This document shows, piece by piece, positions 15,557 to 25,584 of a DNA stretch of 26,875 nt. Where the stretch lies: assembly GCA_964647795.1 (NCBI GenBank), contig CAZYJP010000001.1, forward strand, positions 1 to 26,875, in the 5' to 3' direction. Each line of letters starts with the position of its first letter. Position 1 is the stretch's first letter. Under the pieces are notes generated by a model that had not been told where the DNA came from, made no database searches, and saw only the letters and a list, made by a program, of their open reading frames with translations. Source of the DNA: an uncultured Thermodesulfobacteriota bacterium. GTDB lineage: Bacteria; Desulfobacterota; Deferrisomatia; Deferrisomatales; JACRMM01. Both the position numbers and the translations under genes were made by a program.

Positions 15557-16903
15557 ATGAGTGGCCTGCGTCTGAACATCGCGAACAAGCTTTTCTTGGG
15601 TTATCTCCCGCTCTTGCTGCTGACCGCCCTGATCGCTTCGTTCGCTCTTCTCAGCCTCACGCGTCTCAACCGGATCACCGACAGCATCGTCCAGGTAGAC
15701 GTCCCCCTGGTGGAGGCTGTGGATCAGTTGGTGGAGAATCTCCTGGCGCAGGACTCCTACGGCCGGCGCTACCTCCTCCTGCGGGATCCCGAGTTGGAAG
15801 AGGTCTTCCGCCAACGAAGCGGCGGGTTTCGCAGTCAATTGGTTAGATTCCGAGAGATACGGGGTTGGGAAGACCCGTGGGTAACACGGGTGGAAGGGCT
15901 CCACCGGCAGTACGAGGACCTCTTCGAGGAGGGGTTTGCCCGCTCCGGGGAGCTCAGTCCAGAGGAGAACCGCACGCTGCGAGGTCAGCACGCTGAAATC
16001 CTGGAGACTCTTCGCCAGGAGTCGAGCGCACTCCGGCGTGCCAGAAACCTGAAGACCCTGCAGACCGGCGAAATTGGGGAGCGGGCCTTCCATGTCACCG
16101 TTATTCTGTTTCTCCTGGGTGCCGCGGTAGCCGGGGGAACTGCCCTGATCATCTCCCGGGGAATCACGGTGGCCGTGCACCGGCTCCAGACCGCCGCCGG
16201 TGAGATCTCGGAGGGACGCTTCGACCGGGTACCGGAACTGGACACGGGGGACGAGATCGGAGATCTCGCCCGGGCCTTTGCGGCCATGTCTTCCCGGCTC
16301 CAGAGGATGGAGCAGACCTGCCTGGATGCGAGTCCCCTGACCCGCCTTCCGGGGGGGGAAGCGATCGAGGATGCTCTTCATCAGCGGATCGAACGAGGGG
16401 ACCCCGTGGCTTTTTGTCTGTTCGATCTGGACAACTTCAAGGCCTACAGCGACAAGTACGGCTACGCCCGAGGCAGCGGCGTGATCAAGTCGGTGGGGCG
16501 GATTCTGGAGAAGACGGTGGAGCAGGCGGGAAAGCCGGAGGATTTCATCGGGCACATCGGGGGAGACGACTTTGTCCTCCTCACGGCCCGAGAGCGGTGC
16601 CGGAGCTTGTGCAACGAGGTGATCCGACGCTTCGACGCGGCGGTGCCGGGGTTCTATGATGAGGAGGATCGATCGCGGGGGTTCATCCGGGGGAAGAGCC
16701 GCCAGGGGGAATCCGCCACGTTTCCCCTTCTTTCCCTTTCGATCGCCGTGGTAACGGAAACGGACCTGGTATACCGCGACCCCATTTCCATCGGCGAAGC
16801 GGCAGCCCGGCTGAAGGAATCCGCCAAGGAAATCCCCGGGAGCGTGACCGTGATCGACGTAGAATCCCTTCCCGGGAGTTTGCCTCCCAGGACGGCGTCA
16901 TGA
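15557..16903 (+). CDS. Membrane sensor with HAMP and GGDEF-like domain (GGDDF)
   Basis: Two TMs flanking a roughly 140-aa helical periplasmic region; HAMP (GDEIGDLARAFAAM); DLDNFK...GHIGGDDF...SLSIAV. Confidence 0.9.
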   Translation: MSGLRLNIANKLFLGYLPLLLLTALIASFALLSLTRLNRITDSIVQVDVPLVEAVDQLVENLLAQDSYGRRYLLLRDPELEEVFRQRSGGFRSQLVRFREIRGWEDPWVTRVEGLHRQYEDLFEEGFARSGELSPEENRTLRGQHAEILETLRQESSALRRARNLKTLQTGEIGERAFHVTVILFLLGAAVAGGTALIISRGITVAVHRLQTAAGEISEGRFDRVPELDTGDEIGDLARAFAAMSSRLQRMEQTCLDASPLTRLPGGEAIEDALHQRIERGDPVAFCLFDLDNFKAYSDKYGYARGSGVIKSVGRILEKTVEQAGKPEDFIGHIGGDDFVLLTARERCRSLCNEVIRRFDAAVPGFYDEEDRSRGFIRGKSRQGESATFPLLSLSIAVVTETDLVYRDPISIGEAAARLKESAKEIPGSVTVIDVESLPGSLPPRTAS

Positions 16904-17574
16904 GGAGCTCAGGGTTTGTTGTCGCGGTCCTGGTGATCGGAGCGTGCGCGTGTACCTCCTTGAGCCCTGCCGGCCGCCTCTATGAGACGTATGCGCGGAT
17001 CGACGGGGGAAAGGTTGCCGGGGAGATCGAGCGCTGGGAGGGCGTGGCCCAGGATGCGCCGGACGGCGCGCTTCGCGCCGGGGCACACTTGCGGCTGGCT
17101 CTGCTCCTGTCCCACCCCGAGCATCCGGAACCCGACTATCGGAGGGCGTTGGAAGAACTGGAGCGCTATCGGTCCCTGGATCCCCGAGGCGCTCGGGACC
17201 TGGAGTTACGTCGACTCCTGGGGGTTCTCTCGGACCTGCGCCGCTGCGAGCTCCAGGAGGAGCGGAGGGGGGATTTGGTGGAGTTCCTGTGGAAGGAGGA
17301 ACAAGACGTTCGGCGACGCCTCGAGGAACTGCGGCAAGACAGTCGGGGGGTGGACGGGCTCCTGGACGTGGTGCTGGAACGGGAGCGCGCCCTGGGGCGG
17401 CAGAATCAGGAGCTCATCCGGGAGCACGAGGAAATCGCGGAGCAGCTTCGGGAGTTGGAGTCGGGCACCCGGACGCTGGAAGCGGAGAACCGGGAATTGA
17501 AGGAAACCCTGGAGCGCCTCAAGAACCTGGACCTCCAACTGGAACGGATGCGATCCGGGGATCCGCCCCGTTGA
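16900..17574 (+). CDS. Putative lipoprotein, helical/TPR-like N-half and long C-terminal coiled coil
   Basis: Signal peptide with lipobox-like VIGA-C16; heptad-rich C-half ending LKETLERLKNLDLQLERMR; ATGA overlap with the GGDEF gene. Confidence 0.75.
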   Translation: MRSSGFVVAVLVIGACACTSLSPAGRLYETYARIDGGKVAGEIERWEGVAQDAPDGALRAGAHLRLALLLSHPEHPEPDYRRALEELERYRSLDPRGARDLELRRLLGVLSDLRRCELQEERRGDLVEFLWKEEQDVRRRLEELRQDSRGVDGLLDVVLERERALGRQNQELIREHEEIAEQLRELESGTRTLEAENRELKETLERLKNLDLQLERMRSGDPPR

Positions 17575-17705: not shown

Positions 17706-17739
17706 CGCATCCGGCGCGCATCCGGTGGCGCGCATCCGG
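17706..17739. repeat. Three copies of CGCATCCGG
   Basis: Copies at 17706-17714, 17717-17725 and 17731-17739 in intergenic DNA. Confidence 0.75.
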
Positions 17740-17743
17740 TGCG

Positions 17744-17773
17744 TTGACCCGCCGGTAGCCGGTCACGTAGAGT
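17744..17773 (+). promoter_or_regulatory. Possible sigma70 promoter of the AAA-ATPase cluster
   Basis: TTGACC (17744-17749), 18 nt spacer, TAGAGT (17768-17773), about 60 nt before ATG 17833. Confidence 0.4.
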
Positions 17774-17832: not shown

Positions 17833-18114
17833 ATGCGCTCGTTTCTCGGCTATTTCGGTCTGGAAACCGGAGAGAAGGCCTGGGATGTCCTGTGCTGGGC
17901 GGCACCCTACCTTCTCCTCCTCGGGACCGCGCTGTTGGGGCTCTCTTTCGGCGTCCAGTGGCTTTTCCCGCTTCCCTTGTGGGTGCACGGGGCAGCGGTC
18001 CTTTTGGCCCTGTTCTATTTTTTCCTGTTTCTGGCGCGCATGCGCCGAAGTGTCGAAGACTCGGACCCGGACGAGGGAGCCGATGCAGGTCCTCCCCCCG
18101 ATGTCCGTGCCTAG
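17833..18114 (+). CDS. Hypothetical small membrane protein (2 TM, acidic tail)
   Basis: Two clear hydrophobic segments, purine-rich upstream sequence, co-oriented with the downstream cluster. Confidence 0.65.
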   Translation: MRSFLGYFGLETGEKAWDVLCWAAPYLLLLGTALLGLSFGVQWLFPLPLWVHGAAVLLALFYFFLFLARMRRSVEDSDPDEGADAGPPPDVRA

Positions 18115-18202
18115 GTGACGGGGGCGAAGCCCCCCAGGTCCCCTCACCCGAGTTATGCCCTTTGAATCGGGTCAGCCTGCAGCGGCACAGCCCGGAGAGA
18201 CC

Positions 18203-19693
18203 ATGGACGTTCGGGAAGAACTGAGCATCCTCATCCGTTCCCGACAGCCTCTCATCTCCCTGGTGACCGGGGAGGAGGAACGGGCGCGCGATCTCCTGCG
18301 GGAACTGGCCGAGGAGCTGGGAAACCGGGAGCTCTTCTTCTGGAACGCCGTGACCGGGTTTCGGAAGGTGGGGAGCGGGGGAAATCCGCTGGAGGAGGGG
18401 CGAATGGACCCACTCACTGCCCTTCAGCGGCTCGAGGCATACCGGGGAGAGGCCCTCTTCGTACTGGAGGACTTCCACCCCTTCTTCGAAGAGCCGGTGG
18501 TGGTGCGGATGCTTCGCAACCTCCTCTATTCCCTGCGGTCTGCCCGGAAGACCGCGGTCCTCATCAGCCACAACTTCAAGCTCCCGGCTGAGTTCCGCGA
18601 AGACGTACCCCAGGTTTTCTTGCCACTACCCGACTACGAGGCCCTTCGGGAGCTTCTCCACGGAGTCTGCGAGGGCAGGGACGTGAAGGTGGATCTGACC
18701 TCGGAGGGAGAGGAGAAATTGGTCAAGTCCGCGTTGGGACTCACCGAGAATCAGGCCCGCGGAGTGTTCGTCAAGTCGATCCTCAAGCACCAAGACCTCA
18801 ACCAGTCGGCGATCGGCCTAGTGCTCTCGGAGAAGCAGAAGATCATAAAGAAGGACGAAGTGCTGGAATTCTTCCCCGCCCGTGAGAGGATTTCCGACAT
18901 TGGCGGTCTCGACAACCTCAAGGAATGGCTAAAGAAGCGAGACAAGGCCTTCAGCAGCCGCGCCAAGGACTACGGGCTCCCCAACCCCAAGGGGATCCTG
19001 ATCATCGGGGTTCAGGGTACGGGGAAGAGCCTGACGGCCAAGGCAACCTCGGCCCTGTGGCGCTTGCCTCTCCTGCGCATGGACATGGGCAAGGTGTTCG
19101 GCAGCCTCGTGGGGGAGTCGGAGGAACGCATCCGCAAGGCCCTCCTCCTGGCCGAGACCATCAGTCCCTGCATCTTGTGGATCGACGAGATCGAGAAGGG
19201 GTTTGCCAGCGTGGCCGGGAGCGGCGACTCCGGGACCTCGGCCCGGGTGTTCGGTACGTTCCTCACCTGGATGCAGGAAAAGGAAAAGCCCGTCTTCGTG
19301 ATCGCTACCGGCAACGATATCGCCAACCTTCCCCCGGAGCTCATGCGCAAGGGCCGCTTCGACGAGATCTTCTTCGTAGACCTCCCCACCTACGACGAGC
19401 GCATCGAGATCTTCCGCGTTCATCTGGCGCGGGTGCGGCCGGTGATCCGCAACTACGAGATCTCCTTCCTGGCCGGCGAGACCGAGGGGTTCAGCGGTGC
19501 CGAGATCGAGCAGGCGATCATCAATGCCATGTACAACGCTTTCGACGACGGGGAACGGGAGTTCACCACCGAAGACATCCGCAAGGGCGCGCGAGAGGTC
19601 ATCCCGATCGCCAAGCTGATGAGCGAACGGATCGAGAAATTGCGCGAGTGGGCGGCCGAGCGGACGCGTCGGGCCAACAAGGAAGCTCACTGA
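18203..19693 (+). CDS. Ycf46-family AAA+ ATPase
   Basis: N-terminus LIRSRQPL...EEERA; degenerate first domain (LEDFHPF, no Walker A); active domain [54 protein letters not shown] 18203 follows GGAGAG. Confidence 0.9.
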
Positions 19694-19702
19694 GGAGGGT
19701 CC

Positions 19703-20077
19703 ATGTCCCATTTCACCAAGGTGCGGACCAAGATCGTCGAGCTGCTCCAACTCAAGCGCGCCCTGGACGACATGAACCTCGAGTACCAGGAGGGCAAGGT
19801 CAAGATTCGAGGCTACCTGGGACAGAAGATGGCCGTGGATCTTCGGGTCCGGACCCCGGAGGGGTACGACATCGGCTTCGTGAAGAGCGGAGACACTTAC
19901 GAGGTCGTGGCCGACTGGGACATGGTCAAGACCTTCACCCAGGAGACCTTCACCCGAGAAGTCGCCCGCCGCTATGCGTACCACGTGGTCAAAGAGCAGC
20001 TCGGCATCCAGGATTTCCGCGTCGTGCAGGAAACCCGGCAGGGGGAGACGGTGAGCCTGACCCTGAGGAGGATGTGA
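19703..20077 (+). CDS. DUF1257 (Ycf35-like) protein
   Basis: MSHFTKVRTKI..L..ALDD, DIGF......YEVVADW, RRYAY pattern; GAGGAGG RBS; typical position after a Ycf46 ATPase. Confidence 0.85.
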   Translation: MSHFTKVRTKIVELLQLKRALDDMNLEYQEGKVKIRGYLGQKMAVDLRVRTPEGYDIGFVKSGDTYEVVADWDMVKTFTQETFTREVARRYAYHVVKEQLGIQDFRVVQETRQGETVSLTLRRM

Positions 20078-20078
20078 G

Positions 20079-20279
20079 TTGGAAGAGGTCAAGGTGTCGA
20101 TCGACGAGGAGGGCAACGTCAAGGTGACCGTCTTCGGGGTTCGGGGGCCAGGGTGTCTGGCGATTACCGAGAAACTCGAGGCCCTCCTCGGGGGGAGCGT
20201 GGAGCGCGAGTTCACCTCGGAGTACTACAGTCAGGTCGAAGAGGTCGGTCAGAAGACCAAGGTGGAGCGCAAGGCCTGA
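20079..20279 (+). CDS. DUF2997 protein
   Basis: I..EG.V.V.V.GV.GPGC...TEKLE..LG....REFTSEYY pattern; TTG start 7 nt after GAGGAGG. Confidence 0.85.
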   Translation: MEEVKVSIDEEGNVKVTVFGVRGPGCLAITEKLEALLGGSVEREFTSEYYSQVEEVGQKTKVERKA

Positions 20280-20285
20280 CGGCAG

Positions 20286-22046
20286 ATGGATCCCCTCGTC
20301 CACCGCCCGGTCGGCGATCTTCTGGAGGAGATCCTCACCCGGGGGGCCGCCCGCTTCCCCGGTTACGTCGAGTTGTATCCGCTGGGCCCCATCCCCTATC
20401 GGACGTCGGTCCTGTTGGGGGGACTCTGCCTCGGCCCCGACACCGAGGCGGAGTTGAGGGACCGACTGACCCGAAGGGACTCTCCGGAAAAGACCCGGCT
20501 CGTGCTGGGCCTCGGCGAGATCGGGCACCCGATGGCCGAGGGGCACCTGGCCCGGGTGCTGCGAGAGCGCGGATCGGAAGAGGTGATGGCCGCGGCTCTC
20601 CGCGGTCTGGGCCGGATTCGGGGGGCGCGCAGTCTTCCGCTGATCCTGCAGCACCTGGAGCAAACCTCGCTGTTCCCGGCCGCGTGCGAGGCCCTGGCCC
20701 TCTACGGAGGTCCCGAGGCGGCGGCGGGTCTGGTGAGGCGGGCGGCCGAATTCCCTGCCTTTCGGGCACTCTGCGAGTTGGGGACCTCCGGGGCCAAGGC
20801 TGAAATCCTCGCCGGCCTGGAGCGGGGGGATCCGTGGGACGCGGAAGCGGCTCGCGGAATCGGGCGTCTGGGCGACAGGGAGCTTGGTAACCGGCTCCTG
20901 CCATGCCTGGAGACGACCAGCCCGGTACTCGCACGGGCCGCCTTCGAGGCCTATGCCCGTCTGGGGGCCCCTGCCGGCGCGGAACCGCTGCTGCGCCTTG
21001 CGGAAGCAGGGCTGGAGGCGTGGATGGTGCCGTCCCTCGCATCTGTGGACGACCCCCGGGTCCACCGCCTGCTCCTCGGGTCCCTGACACCGCTCCCTTC
21101 CAAGGGGCTTCTGGGCCGGCTGTTCCGGAGGCGGAAGGACACCGGGATCGAAGGCCGCGCCGTCTACCGCTCGCTGCGGGGGGCGACCGACCCCGAGGTG
21201 GTTGAGAAGCTCTTGGAACGGCTCGGGGAGACGGCACCGGTCCTGGAGGTTCGCGAGCTCCTGGAGAATCGTTCGTTGCGCACCGAGGTCCGGCACGCCG
21301 AGGCCCTTCTCCCCTTGTGGCGGGAGGGGGATCTTTTCTCACGGTATCTTGCAGCTCGTGTCCTCCTGCAGATACCGAACGCCGCCTTCCTGACCGAGGC
21401 CCTCGAGCTCCTCAAACGCCCCGGTTTTCTTCCCCTCGACGGCGTACCGGCCTCCGCCGACCGAGCCCGCATGTTGGAGGCCTACGCCAGGGACAACAAT
21501 CCCTCCCTCCTGCTGGGTGGTTTTCTGGATACGGGACTGGCAGATGCTTCCGGCCTGCTGGAATCGCTGCGCCGCCGTTTCGCCGCGCATGGGTTTCCGG
21601 AGGGTTGCGAACCGGCGGCCCGATTCTCTGGGCCGGGAGAGGGGGAGATCGGGGAGTTCCTGGGTGCCTTGGTGGCCGCCCACCCCGACAAGGCCGAACC
21701 CCTGACACGGATGTGGGGGCTCCTGGACGAGCTCGACGACCGGGGGGATCGTCTCCTGGACCTCTTCCTGGCTTGGACCGGCGTCCACCGGGGTTCGCTC
21801 CAGCGTGCCCTTGCCCAGGGGATCGGGTTCGCCCTGGGCCGGTTCGTCCAGGGGCAGACCGACCGCTACCTGCCGCTTCTCGACGAGATCGGGGGGCACG
21901 CGCCGAAAGAGGGTCCGTTGGCCGCGCCCGTCCGGGCTGCTCTGGAAGCGGCGCGAGGGACCCTTCAGGCAGCGTGCCACGACATCGCCTTGCTCTCGGA
22001 GGGCCGAAGCCAGCGGGGGGACATGGTGCTCATCGAGGAGCTTTAG
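20286..22046 (+). CDS. HEAT (PBS-lyase-like) repeat protein
   Basis: Repeats such as LGLGEIG, ALRGLGRI, ACEALALYG, AARGIGRLG, AAFEAYARLG in the N-terminal half; helical C-terminal half of unknown type. Confidence 0.8.
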   Translation: MDPLVHRPVGDLLEEILTRGAARFPGYVELYPLGPIPYRTSVLLGGLCLGPDTEAELRDRLTRRDSPEKTRLVLGLGEIGHPMAEGHLARVLRERGSEEVMAAALRGLGRIRGARSLPLILQHLEQTSLFPAACEALALYGGPEAAAGLVRRAAEFPAFRALCELGTSGAKAEILAGLERGDPWDAEAARGIGRLGDRELGNRLLPCLETTSPVLARAAFEAYARLGAPAGAEPLLRLAEAGLEAWMVPSLASVDDPRVHRLLLGSLTPLPSKGLLGRLFRRRKDTGIEGRAVYRSLRGATDPEVVEKLLERLGETAPVLEVRELLENRSLRTEVRHAEALLPLWREGDLFSRYLAARVLLQIPNAAFLTEALELLKRPGFLPLDGVPASADRARMLEAYARDNNPSLLLGGFLDTGLADASGLLESLRRRFAAHGFPEGCEPAARFSGPGEGEIGEFLGALVAAHPDKAEPLTRMWGLLDELDDRGDRLLDLFLAWTGVHRGSLQRALAQGIGFALGRFVQGQTDRYLPLLDEIGGHAPKEGPLAAPVRAALEAARGTLQAACHDIALLSEGRSQRGDMVLIEEL

Positions 22047-22122
22047 CAGGGTGAATCACTACGCTTTTCAAGCGCCGTGATTCGGCGCCCCATGCAGGGC
22101 TGCTTTTTCAGCAGCCTGCTAG
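22044..22122 (-). mobile_element. Truncated MITE-like repeat (copy 1)
   Basis: Ends TTTTTCAGCAGCCTGCTAG (22104-22122); TAGCAGG/CCTGCTA inverted termini; 22079-22093 is the exact reverse complement of 25392-25406. Confidence 0.6.
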
Positions 22123-22209
22123 GGTAAAGACCGCGGTCCTAGAGGTTCCTGGTCTTCAAGGGTTTTTGGGCCGAACCGACGAGTCGGCACGCCGTGCGAA
22201 GGACACACC

Positions 22210-23670
22210 GTGGCAGACCTGACCATCGACCTGGGCAACTACAACACGATCCTGACCTTCCGCCAAGACACGGCGGAAATCAGGGGGCTCCTGAGGGGTG
22301 TGGCTCGGGGAATCCACGAATTTCCCGGAACGCTCTTCGTCCCCTCCCTCATCTATCTCGGGGATCGCACCCTGCTCGGGGAGGAGGTGTTGAGCGAGGG
22401 GCTCTACGAGGACGAGGGGTGCTTTCGGGACCTCAAAGACCACATCCTCCACCCGGCCCCGGTGGCCCGTAGCGTTCGGGGCCTGAGATATACCCACAAG
22501 AAGGCCGCCGCCACCTTTCTCACCGAGCTCACCCGGCGCCTGGCCGCAGAAATGGGGGAGCCCCTCAACCTGGTCTTCCTGTTCCCGAATCAAGGGGGGG
22601 AGCTGTTTCGGGAGTGTCTTCGCTACGTGGACCTGGAAGGAGCCCGCTCCGTGACTCTCTTGGACGAGGACACCGCGGTAGCCCTGGGCTACGATTTGAA
22701 CCTTTTCGTAGACGATCTGGTGTTGGTCTTCGATTTCGGCTTCTCGTCCCTGAGGGCGCGGGTACTCCAGTTCCAGTGGCTCGGTCGCGAGGCATACACG
22801 CCGCCGGTCCTCAAGGCCGCCGCCAGTCTCCCGGTGGGCACGGCGGACCTGCGGATGAAGATCCTGCGCGAGCTTCACGTGGATGACGCCGGCGCGGACC
22901 TGCCCACCTTCTACTGGAAGAAGTTCCGCCTGCACGACGTCGACTCGGAGCCCCTCAGCCACGAACGGTTCGAGGAAGCGCTGCGCAGGGAAGGCCTCGG
23001 CGCACGCGTGCAGGAGGCGCTGGACCGCGCCCTGGAGGAGGCTGCGCTCACGGGGGTGCGGGCGTCGGACATCCGCAAGGTGCTCCTCGTAGGGGGCGGC
23101 ACCCGAATTCCACAGATCCGCCGAACTCTTGACGAGAACTTTGGGGATCGGGTCCTGGGGGACTTGCCGGAGGTGGCCTCTGGAAGGGGTGGTGTCCACT
23201 TCCTCTCGGAGCGCGCTGTGGACGACATGGTACGAGAGACCTACTCGATCCAGGTCCGCGATGCCATCAGCGGGGAGTACCGGTATGCTCCCGTCGTGGA
23301 GAGGTACTCGCGTTACCCCACGCGGAGCCCCACCGCGCGCTACGTGGTGAACACCTTCTACGACGGCCAGTACGAGCTGCACCTGACCATCTTTCGAACC
23401 ACTCGCTCGGGCGAGGCGGAGGCCGGGAGAGAGATCGTGTACGGGGAGGACGGAAGGATCAGTTTCGTCGGCGGCCAGACCCAGGAGGCTCACGAGCCGG
23501 TGATGGTCGCCCCCCTGGTGATCCCGGTCCAACCCCCGGGCAGGATCGGGGAGCGCAGGTTCCTCCTCGAATTCGGTGTGGACAACCAGAAGCGCCTCCT
23601 GGTCACCGTGAAGGATCTGCGAGAGGAGAGGGTGCTGTGGGAGGACAAGCCCCTGATGGAGTTGGCCTAG
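22210..23670 (+). CDS. Divergent Hsp70-family protein (no helical lid)
   Basis: IDLGNYNT, VPSLIY, LLDEDTAVALGY, LVFDFGFSS, VLLVGGGTRIPQIR correspond to the Hsp70 ATPase motifs; beta-rich C-terminal domain; 486 aa; GTG start after AAGGA. Confidence 0.85.
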   Translation: MADLTIDLGNYNTILTFRQDTAEIRGLLRGVARGIHEFPGTLFVPSLIYLGDRTLLGEEVLSEGLYEDEGCFRDLKDHILHPAPVARSVRGLRYTHKKAAATFLTELTRRLAAEMGEPLNLVFLFPNQGGELFRECLRYVDLEGARSVTLLDEDTAVALGYDLNLFVDDLVLVFDFGFSSLRARVLQFQWLGREAYTPPVLKAAASLPVGTADLRMKILRELHVDDAGADLPTFYWKKFRLHDVDSEPLSHERFEEALRREGLGARVQEALDRALEEAALTGVRASDIRKVLLVGGGTRIPQIRRTLDENFGDRVLGDLPEVASGRGGVHFLSERAVDDMVRETYSIQVRDAISGEYRYAPVVERYSRYPTRSPTARYVVNTFYDGQYELHLTIFRTTRSGEAEAGREIVYGEDGRISFVGGQTQEAHEPVMVAPLVIPVQPPGRIGERRFLLEFGVDNQKRLLVTVKDLREERVLWEDKPLMELA

Positions 23671-23933
23671 GCGGCGAACGAGACGGACAGGGACAGGCTG
23701 CGCGTCGGCTGTTCGTCGTCCGGTTGGCAGTGGGCGGGCCCGCCTTCCTCCTGGCGGTGTTCGGGTTGGTCGTCGGCTATCGGCTGGCCGGCCTCCCGTT
23801 GGGAGACGGGAGGTTCTGGTGGGTTCTGGGGCCCGTGATCACGGCCTTTGCCCTCTATCTCGGGCATGCTATTCTGCGCCTCCGATGCCCGACGGGGAGG
23901 CGCCCGGGACCCTTCCCGACGAAGGAGGAGTGA
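23637..23933 (+). CDS. Hypothetical small membrane protein (2 TM)
   Basis: Two hydrophobic segments; AGGAG upstream of GTG 23637; fills the gap between Hsp70 and tpx; start uncertain. Confidence 0.55.
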   Translation: MGGQAPDGVGLGGERDGQGQAARRLFVVRLAVGGPAFLLAVFGLVVGYRLAGLPLGDGRFWWVLGPVITAFALYLGHAILRLRCPTGRRPGPFPTKEE

Positions 23934-23938
23934 ATGAC

Positions 23939-24445
23939 ATGCAGGAGCGCCGGGGGTTCGTAATGCTGAGGGGAAACTCCATGGCCCTGGTTGGGCCGGC
24001 TCTCCAGGCGGGGGACCGCGCCCCCGATTTTACGGTGCTGGACGGGGCCTGGAAGCCGGTCACCCTCGCCGACTTCGCGGGGAAGAAGAAGCTCATCAGT
24101 GCCGTGCCGAGTCTCGATACACCGATTTGCGAGCTCCAGACCAAGCGCTTCCACGAGGAAGCGGGGAAGCTGCCCCCCGACGTCGCGGTCCTCACCGTGT
24201 CCATGGACCTGCCCTTCGCCCAGAGCCGGTTCTGCACCACCCACGGGATCGAGTCGCTCCACGTGCTCTCGGACTACCGGGACGCGTCCTTCGGCCTGGC
24301 CTGGGGCATCCTGATCCGAGACGTGAGGCTCCTGGCCCGGGCCGTCTTTGTGGTCGACGAGCAGGACGTGATCCGGCACCTTGAAATCGTGCCCGAGGTC
24401 TCGGAGCACCCGGACTACGAGGCAGCTTTCGCGGCGATCCGCTGA
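23939..24445 (+). CDS. tpx: Thiol peroxidase (Tpx, atypical 2-Cys peroxiredoxin)
   Basis: GDRAPDF, VPSLDTPICELQTKRF (peroxidatic Cys), SMDLPFAQSRFC (resolving Cys), LLARAVFVVD, HPDYE; ATG 23939 after AGGAGGAG. Confidence 0.95.
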   Translation: MQERRGFVMLRGNSMALVGPALQAGDRAPDFTVLDGAWKPVTLADFAGKKKLISAVPSLDTPICELQTKRFHEEAGKLPPDVAVLTVSMDLPFAQSRFCTTHGIESLHVLSDYRDASFGLAWGILIRDVRLLARAVFVVDEQDVIRHLEIVPEVSEHPDYEAAFAAIR

Positions 24446-25350: not shown

Positions 25351-25584
25351 CTAGCAGGCCGTCGAAGAACGCCTTGCAGCGCTCCCCACGGATGGGGCGC
25401 CGAATCGCGGAGAGCTTGAAAGGTGTAGCGATCGTAAGGGTTCGAAGGGGCCGCCCCGAGACGATTCCCCAGGACAGGGGAATCGGACGCGCCGTCGGCG
25501 CACCCGGAGGGCGAGCCGCGGGACGGGCCGAGTCAACCCGTCGCTGAAAAAACCCGTGGAGGGGTTTTTTCGGTATCCTGCTGG
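25351..25584 (+). mobile_element. MITE-like repeat (copy 2, longer)
   Basis: Left end CTAGCAGGCCGTCGAAGAA; right end reverse complement CCAGCAGGATACCGAAAAAA; internal block homologous to 22055-22093; no transposase. Confidence 0.6.

Follow-up and report, generated by a model that had tools for sequence, protein, structure and literature searches.

A reduced, membrane-linked branch of an AAA+/lidless Hsp70/DUF1257/DUF2997 module in a Thermodesulfobacteriota genome

The mechanism of Ycf46 and Ycf35, two reading frames conserved in cyanobacteria and algal plastids, has never been worked out. In the yeast ribosome-associated complex, the atypical Hsp70 Ssz1, whose substrate-binding domain is shortened and which has no productive ATP cycle, is permanently bound to its partner Zuotin, a segment of which lies in the Ssz1 substrate-binding domain as a pseudo-substrate. 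Here we describe a locus with likenesses to both, found in a stretch of 26,875 nucleotides (nt), hereafter the window, from an uncultured Thermodesulfobacteriota bacterium (assembly GCA_964647795.1, contig CAZYJP010000001.1, positions 1 to 26,875 of the forward strand). Between 17833 and 23933 lie seven genes, for a small protein with two predicted transmembrane segments (TM1), a Ycf46-like AAA+ ATPase, a DUF1257 (Ycf35-like) protein, a DUF2997 protein, a HEAT-repeat protein, a lidless Hsp70-like protein and a second small two-segment protein (TM2). Judged by its gene content and by the phylogeny of its ATPase, the locus is a reduced, membrane-linked branch of a larger AAA+/lidless Hsp70/DUF1257/DUF2997 module, and we propose, giving the idea about as much weight for as against, that its products form one membrane-associated protein-remodelling complex.

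The cyanobacterial and red-lineage plastid Ycf46-Ycf35 loci resemble the window in having a two-tier AAA protein (45-48% identity) with DUF1257 directly downstream, but the cyanobacterial loci sampled here lack DUF2997, Hsp70 and HEAT genes, and their AAA proteins fall in separate clades. The window protein is thus placed outside Ycf46 proper, and 'Ycf46-like' is the accurate label for it. A first-pass annotation, made from the window's letters alone, had treated AAA, DUF1257 and DUF2997 as a triad best known from cyanobacteria, a view at odds with the sampled loci of that group, which carry AAA and DUF1257 without DUF2997. The published DUF2997-ycf35-fed7 cluster is a separate locus (PMC4284462). 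Severe oxidative stress induces the ycf46 operon in S. elongatus (PMC13683863). Kaur et al. (2020) assign Hsp70 to systems built around GTPases and not to the present one. A search of the literature naming DUF1257 or DUF2997 found no paper describing this cluster, nor did we find one on the larger module.

The seven genes are co-oriented on the + strand and belong to the families assigned at first pass, as the open reading frame (ORF) listing and Pfam both confirm. TM1 (17833-18114) encodes 93 residues with two hydrophobic segments by hydropathy, an acidic C-terminal end and no Pfam family match. The ATPase gene (18203-19693; 496 residues) is followed by DUF1257 (19703-20077; 124 residues; PF06868, E 1e-23), DUF2997 (20079-20279; 66 residues from a TTG start; PF11211, E 4e-14) and the HEAT-repeat gene (20286-22046; 586 residues; HEAT_2, PF13646). 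The gaps between these four, read directly from the sequence, are the 9, 1 and 6 nt first reported, and GGAGG-type sites before DUF1257 and DUF2997 bear out the strong ribosome-binding sites also claimed. The Hsp70-like gene (22210-23670; 486 residues) is overlapped by 34 nt by the start of TM2 (23637-23933; 98 residues), in which hydropathy again finds two hydrophobic segments. For the ATPase, the ATG at 18203 is preceded by GGAGAG, database gene calls give 496 residues from there, and the AAA proteins of relatives align only from this position; from the sequence the gene most likely starts at 18203 and not at 18155, and the TM1-AAA gap is therefore 88 nt.

The order TM1-AAA-DUF1257-DUF2997-HEAT-Hsp70-TM2 recurs in ten loci from Deferrisomatales-type metagenome-assembled genomes (MAGs) and in one further locus from an unclassified bacterium (L012); in all, about 12 related MAGs from soil and groundwater carry the gene set. 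Identity in the related loci is 80-89% for AAA, 70-75% for DUF1257 and 49-72% for Hsp70. Judged by an order kept in at least 10 related MAG loci, the arrangement exceeds chance. The small membrane genes that bracket the block are both conserved in the clade, with TM1 homologues at the same position in L002-L004, L006, L007, L011 and L012 and TM2 homologues with the same overlap in L003, L005-L007 and L010-L012.

For a wider view we collected 80 loci by their ATPase from many phyla and scored them with profiles built in this analysis. Among the 79 outside the window clade, DUF1257 is nearby in 42, DUF2997 in 24 and a lidless Hsp70 in 12, counts to be read as lower bounds given the many short contigs. 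Loci with an Hsp70 occur in one Actinomadura isolate and in MAGs labelled Chloroflexota, Planctomycetota, Cyanobacteriota, Pseudomonadota and Nanoarchaeia, and they reveal a larger module of AAA, one or more HEAT-WD40 proteins, often a GrpE-like protein, Hsp70, DUF1257, DUF2997 and, by Pfam, an NrdG-like radical-SAM protein (WD40, GrpE-like and radical-SAM genes are seen in e.g. L024, L026, L029, L041 and L047). The window cluster has the same AAA subfamily, the one linked to Hsp70, together with DUF1257, DUF2997, the lidless Hsp70 and a homologous two-part protein tail described below. It differs in having no WD40 propeller, GrpE-like or NrdG-like radical-SAM gene, in the rewritten phosphate loops of its Hsp70, in the tail's wording (RGDMVLIEEL against GEFDIEIE) and in its two small membrane genes, which occur only in the window branch and in L021/L022 and in none of the ten larger-module loci. 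The linkage is kept after rearrangement in distant loci (e.g. L015, L021, L024, L026, L041 and L047), the order in L021/L022 for instance being HEAT-Hsp70-AAA-DUF1257-DUF2997-2TM.

The ATPase phylogeny agrees with this picture. A FastTree tree of 92 AAA sequences joins the window clade and L021/L022 as sisters (support 0.976), gives the larger-module sequences a clade of their own (support 1.0) and puts the cyanobacterial sequences in other clades. The initial view had been that the triad is extended in this organism by a HEAT scaffold, an Hsp70 and membrane anchors; because of the AAA tree and the gene content, we read the locus the other way round, as a reduced derivative without WD40, GrpE-like and radical-SAM genes. 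The accompanying suggestion that the genes are functionally linked fares well, as AAA, DUF1257, DUF2997, lidless Hsp70 and a repeat protein are co-located across phyla despite rearrangement.

Some loci met along the way deserve mention in their own right. An unlinked NrdG-like radical-SAM gene on contig C74 of the genome that holds the window (G000:C74:4616-5152; L111:1462-2106; 31% identity) scores 85 bits against an NrdG cut-off of 126, with the module-linked gene of L024 also below that cut-off. Its surroundings showed no recognisable gene for an anaerobic ribonucleotide reductase. The MAG labelled Nanoarchaeia (L041:199-12678) carries an FGE-sulfatase-fold gene along with Hsp70, AAA, DUF1257, DUF2997 and radical-SAM, and three of its large proteins have a common ..IEIT..KDIEV tail. 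In L012:690-3766 (SCTA01), a tail-less second HEAT protein (599 residues) and an HD-domain protein lie directly upstream of TM1.

The Hsp70-like protein is recognised by Pfam only through a weak PF00012 match at residues 248-313. The AlphaFold2 (AF2) model (predicted local distance difference test, pLDDT, 84) has an actin-like nucleotide-binding-domain fold followed by a beta-sandwich substrate-binding domain (about 23227-23667), and each of its 50 best fold matches is to an Hsp70-family chain and spans both domains, with E down to 2.5e-24; the best are to DnaK, lid-truncated BiP and Ssz1 (PDB ID 6sr6 among the matches). We aligned the protein with DnaK and with homologues from an exhaustive search that gave 240 representative clusters at E < 1e-10. 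The chain ends at residue 486, just past the last beta strand, where the aligned DnaK continues for ~150 residues, and the helical lid and C-terminal extension of Hsp70 are thus missing; subdomain IIB is in addition about 35 residues shorter, as it is in every member of the window clade.

Its nucleotide site has been rewritten. Phosphate loop 1 reads GNYN (IDLGNYNT) against GTTN/GTSN in DnaK and the larger-module Hsp70s, and phosphate loop 2 reads GFSS..R (FDFGFSSLRAR) against GGGT..D (GGGTxD) in the same proteins. The protein has thereby lost the Gly-rich phosphate loops and a catalytic-site Asp; the rewritten loops are common to every Hsp70-like member of the window clade, and in the sister lineage L021/L022 the phosphate motifs are lost even more completely. 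ATP binding or hydrolysis has probably been lost or greatly altered, going by these substitutions, and the two-ATPase machine proposed at first pass finds no support in a protein without these elements. Pfam recognises no J-domain or GrpE gene in the locus, and the whole 86%-complete genome has one GrpE match, on another contig (J-domain genes elsewhere were not searched). Two relatives were seen in other settings. A stand-alone member of the degenerate Hsp70-like clade (L014:2933-4393; 43% identity) also lacks the Lys and Glu counterparts of DnaK K70 and E171, and a distant lidless Hsp70 (L019:8001-17390; 22% identity) lies beside a caspase-family peptidase, an AAA_35-WD40 STAND protein and a protein kinase, a context like that of a conflict system and without the triad.

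The HEAT protein is the fastest-evolving member of the cluster, with 36-52% identity in relatives, and its C-terminal tail is conserved (21972-22043; ..DIALL..RGDMVLIEEL). In seven clade members the tail reads ..[RKH]DI.[LV].. and then RGD[MVI]VL[IV]E.L, nearly invariant. The C-termini of six HEAT-WD40 partners from other phyla read ..[FY]DI[EQ].., 6-12 residues and then G[ED][FY]DIE.. (GEFDIEIE), and the two-part pattern is thus the same in the window and in the larger module. BLASTP of the HEAT protein against these HEAT-WD40 partners returned nothing useful, leaving the tail motif as the only link. We considered the tail as a tag carried by several clients and rejected this, as only 1 of 17,732 ORFs in the genome carries it. 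In L006:8184-10004 the HEAT frame runs 14 residues past the tail, which may be a real extension or an assembly error.

Complex prediction points to a place for this tail. The job contained the Hsp70-like, DUF1257 and DUF2997 proteins with HEAT residues 400-586 as the partner, and it scored 0.68 in three of three runs compared to 0.00 for the best of three controls, one of which swapped out the Hsp70-like chain. The mark applied to this score is reached by 51 of 78 solved complexes and by 2 of 108 mismatched pairs, and is only roughly valid for a four-chain job. The confident predicted interface pairs HEAT residues 576-586 (the last eleven, 22011-22043) with Hsp70-like residues 349-392 and 438-452, which we take to cover strands and loops one to four of the beta domain, where DnaK has its peptide cleft, going by the strand positions in the model and by what is known of DnaK. 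These cleft residues are conserved within the window clade and differ from those of other clades. The HEAT tail is thus predicted to sit in the Hsp70-like substrate cleft, and the HEAT-Hsp70 interaction suggested earlier is supported as predicted binding.

A similar combination of model and motifs describes the ATPase. Its AF2 model (pLDDT 84; 29-sequence alignment) is matched by Foldseek over the whole chain to the D1-D2 tandem of p97/Cdc48 (query TM-score, TMq, 0.70-0.74; E about 1e-20), covering both tiers as expected of a type II, two-tier Cdc48/p97-like protein. The fold of the first tier is present without a P-loop. The second tier has GTGKS, WIDEIEK, the sensor Asn in ATGN and the RKGRFDE arginines, all at positions invariant in 29 homologues, and with PF00004 (E 2e-29), AAA_lid_3, Walker A and B, sensor-1 and the arginines it belongs to the classical clade of AAA+ proteins. 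A dead first ring and an intact classical second ring, read at first from the letters, both reappear in the model and motifs.

The DUF1257 gene is the only copy in the genome. Across 30 sequences its product has an invariant N-terminal Met-Ser-His along with ADW and RYAY motifs, and in DUF2997 three Gly and one Cys are invariant, the Cys lying three residues after an invariant Gly. We regard the Met-Ser-His of DUF1257 and the Cys of DUF2997 as candidate functional sites by their conservation. No credible relative of either family emerged from profile searches of PDB sequences, in which a BMC-H stretch came top at E 0.0015, and an Atlas search for solved relatives returned DUF1257 clusters only. 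Phage families match the AAA protein at full length, and also DUF1257 and DUF2997. As pure speculation, DUF1257 or DUF2997 might be a substrate of the larger module's glycyl-radical-activase-like enzyme.

The 163-nt space before the Hsp70-like gene, which is no sign of separate transcription, is explained by an insertion. Positions 22047-22158 hold an inserted copy of a dispersed repeat with two hairpins, of the repetitive extragenic palindromic (REP) or miniature inverted-repeat transposable element (MITE) type, which lies outside the system proper. Bases 22053-22122 match 34 further places in the genome (601 contigs) at 76-100% identity, and the depth of words in public soil metagenomes rises about 25-fold over 22040-22111 (about 185 compared to 7.6). 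In a ~97%-identical strain, represented by a contig of run X5, 22046 is joined directly to 22159 without the 112-nt element, and relatives have 20-40 nt between HEAT and Hsp70 genes. The gap owes its length to the recent insertion of this 112-nt repeat copy, which is polymorphic between near-identical strains. The first-pass annotation had the gap half filled by a MITE-like remnant; with its 34 matches the element is a copy of a dispersed family and not a remnant. The RNA of the gap, when folded, showed no significant overall structure (z = -1.35). Given how recent the insertion is, separate transcription of the Hsp70-like gene is unlikely. The same repeat family also occurs at 25392-25432 on the - strand.

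A consensus scan places a sigma-70-type promoter candidate upstream of TM1 on the + strand (17744-17773; TTGACC, 18 nt, TAGAGT). Both hexamers and their spacing are retained in L003, L004, L006 and L007 while the flanks diverge, which suggests a single promoter for the cluster. Three direct GCATCCGG copies at 17706-17743, spaced by 11 and 14 nt, abut the -35 hexamer. We rejected this triple repeat as a conserved operator, as it is absent from the promoters of relatives, and it is probably a strain-specific feature or a slippage product. A terminator scan found none between the genes and three matches within coding regions, which is below the shuffled expectation. Downstream, the thiol peroxidase gene tpx (23939-24445, + strand; NCBIfam, 190 bits compared to a cut-off of 123) begins 5 nt past TM2, as first reported, and is probably co-transcribed with the cluster here, yet we rejected it as a fixed member, for only L002-L004, the nearest relatives sampled, have it after the cluster. 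Its presence beside the cluster is a weak hint at a link to oxidative stress, by analogy and confined to those nearest sampled relatives. The neighbours are housekeeping genes, namely an RlmL-type rRNA methyltransferase, a GGDEF protein and tpx. Upstream, a HAMP-GGDEF gene (15557-16903) overlaps by 4 nt a gene for 224 residues (16900-17574), whose product has a lipoprotein-like N-terminus, a long charged and probably coiled-coil region and no Pfam family.

Taken together, the observations allow a working model of the proposed complex. The Cdc48-like AAA+ protein would be the only motor, with an inactive first and an active second tier, as its fold and motifs imply, and DUF1257 and DUF2997 would be its fixed small cofactors, given their near-constant adjacency, which extends to phages. 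The HEAT protein would act as a variable, target-binding adaptor whose C-terminal tail the Hsp70-like protein holds in its peptide cleft, as the controlled prediction has it. The Hsp70-like protein, now without a lid or a GrpE partner and probably unable to bind ATP, may serve as a passive clamp, as Ssz1 does for Zuotin, and the two small membrane proteins, to go by their conservation, would place the assembly at the membrane. The most specific form of this idea, in which the tail is a built-in pseudo-substrate and a private, ATP-independent Hsp70 clamp couples the HEAT adaptor to the Cdc48-like motor at the membrane with DUF1257 and DUF2997 as obligate cofactors, we offer tentatively, as possible but doubtful. 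The physiological role is most likely stress or quality control.

Several observations weigh against the single-complex reading. Most threading AAA proteins have an aromatic residue in pore loop 1, and here this loop is SLVG, with Leu in place of the aromatic, leaving threading not assured. The HEAT gene is not in the locus in L002-L004, and a 47-54% identical homologue lies elsewhere in two of these three genomes. The Hsp70-like gene of L014 stands alone, with no triad within 8 kb. As to the docking, the chains were folded from single sequences, the HEAT fragment has a pLDDT below 50, the job was run without the AAA protein, and the HEAT fragment alone was scored against the other chains. Hsp70-peptide structures are common in the PDB, and the pass may partly reflect memory of them.

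The same evidence has to be weighed under other readings. One is that the locus is a conflict system, against phages or other mobile elements, in which the HEAT protein would detect a protein of the invader, and the ATPase together with the Hsp70-like protein would turn detection into a response. The HEAT protein does diverge far faster than its partners (36-52% identity compared to 80-89% for AAA), its HEAT-WD40 counterparts in other phyla sometimes come in multiple copies that share the tail, occurrence among phyla is patchy, a related lidless Hsp70 lies beside a caspase and a STAND-WD40 protein in L019, and AAA, DUF1257 and DUF2997 are carried by phages. However, PADLOC-DB 2.0 matches were limited to generic ones of the AAA domain to IetA models and a single faint one of HEAT, with none for DUF1257, DUF2997, the Hsp70-like or the TM proteins, and so assigns the locus to no defence system; Pfam finds the locus free of nuclease, protease, TIR and pore-forming effectors; the neighbours are an rRNA methyltransferase, GGDEF and tpx genes; gene order and promoter appear vertically inherited in the clade; and there is a single copy in the genome. 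Because of the housekeeping neighbours, the generic PADLOC matches and the missing effector domain, we favour remodelling or quality control over defence, and consider the anti-phage role, which the first-pass annotation had offered as one option, unlikely.

It is also improbable, in our judgement, that the Hsp70-like protein is still ATP-driven through an unusual nucleotide site, making the locus a two-motor bi-chaperone like ClpB-DnaK. Several residues of the site do remain, namely the phosphate loop 1 Asp, the Lys and Glu that correspond to DnaK K70 and E171, and the GGGTRIP adenosine motif, and an identity of 65-83% within the clade shows strong constraint on the protein. Set against this are the changes GGGT to GFS[SA] and of the next Asp to Arg in every clade member, that of GTT/GTS to GNY, the ~35-residue deficit in subdomain IIB, a locus with no GrpE-like or J-domain gene in a genome showing one GrpE, and a sister lineage (L021/L022) in which the motifs are lost more fully. 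Then there is the reading that the Hsp70-like, HEAT and 2-TM genes are a unit separate from the AAA/DUF1257/DUF2997 triad, neighbours without physical coupling. In L016 and L017 a distant lidless Hsp70 is paired with HEAT and no triad is in the vicinity, Hsp70 is absent from 30 of the 42 sampled AAA loci having DUF1257, the HEAT gene can leave the locus, and the confident contact predicted is the one between HEAT and the Hsp70-like protein, from a job run without the AAA protein. Against such a division, Hsp70-linked AAA proteins form their own well-supported clades (1.0 and 0.976), which argues for co-evolution of the halves, the linkage survives at least three different gene orders, and the gaps are short or overlapping throughout under a single conserved promoter. 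We think it quite improbable that the two halves are uncoupled.

What is new here is the definition of a reduced, membrane-linked branch and its placement on the AAA tree, a controlled prediction of tail docking in the Hsp70 cleft, and an explanation of the intergenic gap. If the model is right in its most specific form, this minimal version would give the Ycf46 and Ycf35 families of cyanobacteria and plastids their first concrete, testable mechanism. Its compact operon combines one plausible motor, a putatively passive clamp of the Hsp70 type and one adaptor whose docking tail is defined, which makes it the simplest version for rebuilding the complex and looking for clients, and the tail-in-cleft prediction narrows to an eleven-residue segment and is sharply testable.

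Among described machines, the ClpB/Hsp104-DnaK-GrpE system resembles the window in coupling an Hsp70-family protein with a two-tier AAA+ machine; the window differs in its dead first tier, with no M-domain identified, in an Hsp70 that is probably non-cycling, and in the absence of J-protein and GrpE from the locus. Cdc48/p97 with its adaptors is the best structural match (TMq up to 0.74) and has a similar logic of small cofactors and repeat adaptors, from which the window protein departs in having no N-domain, a D1 without a P-loop, the SLVG pore loop and an identity of 17-21%. A similar picture emerges for Ssz1-Zuotin. Though the window has no J-domain partner and no ribosome link, the bound segment is the C-terminus of the partner, and the sequence relationship is limited to the Hsp70 fold, the predicted HEAT-Hsp70 interface is of the Ssz1-Zuotin kind, and the locus would then be a bacterial case of an Hsp70 turned structural pseudo-enzyme, parallel to Ssz1 in yeast.

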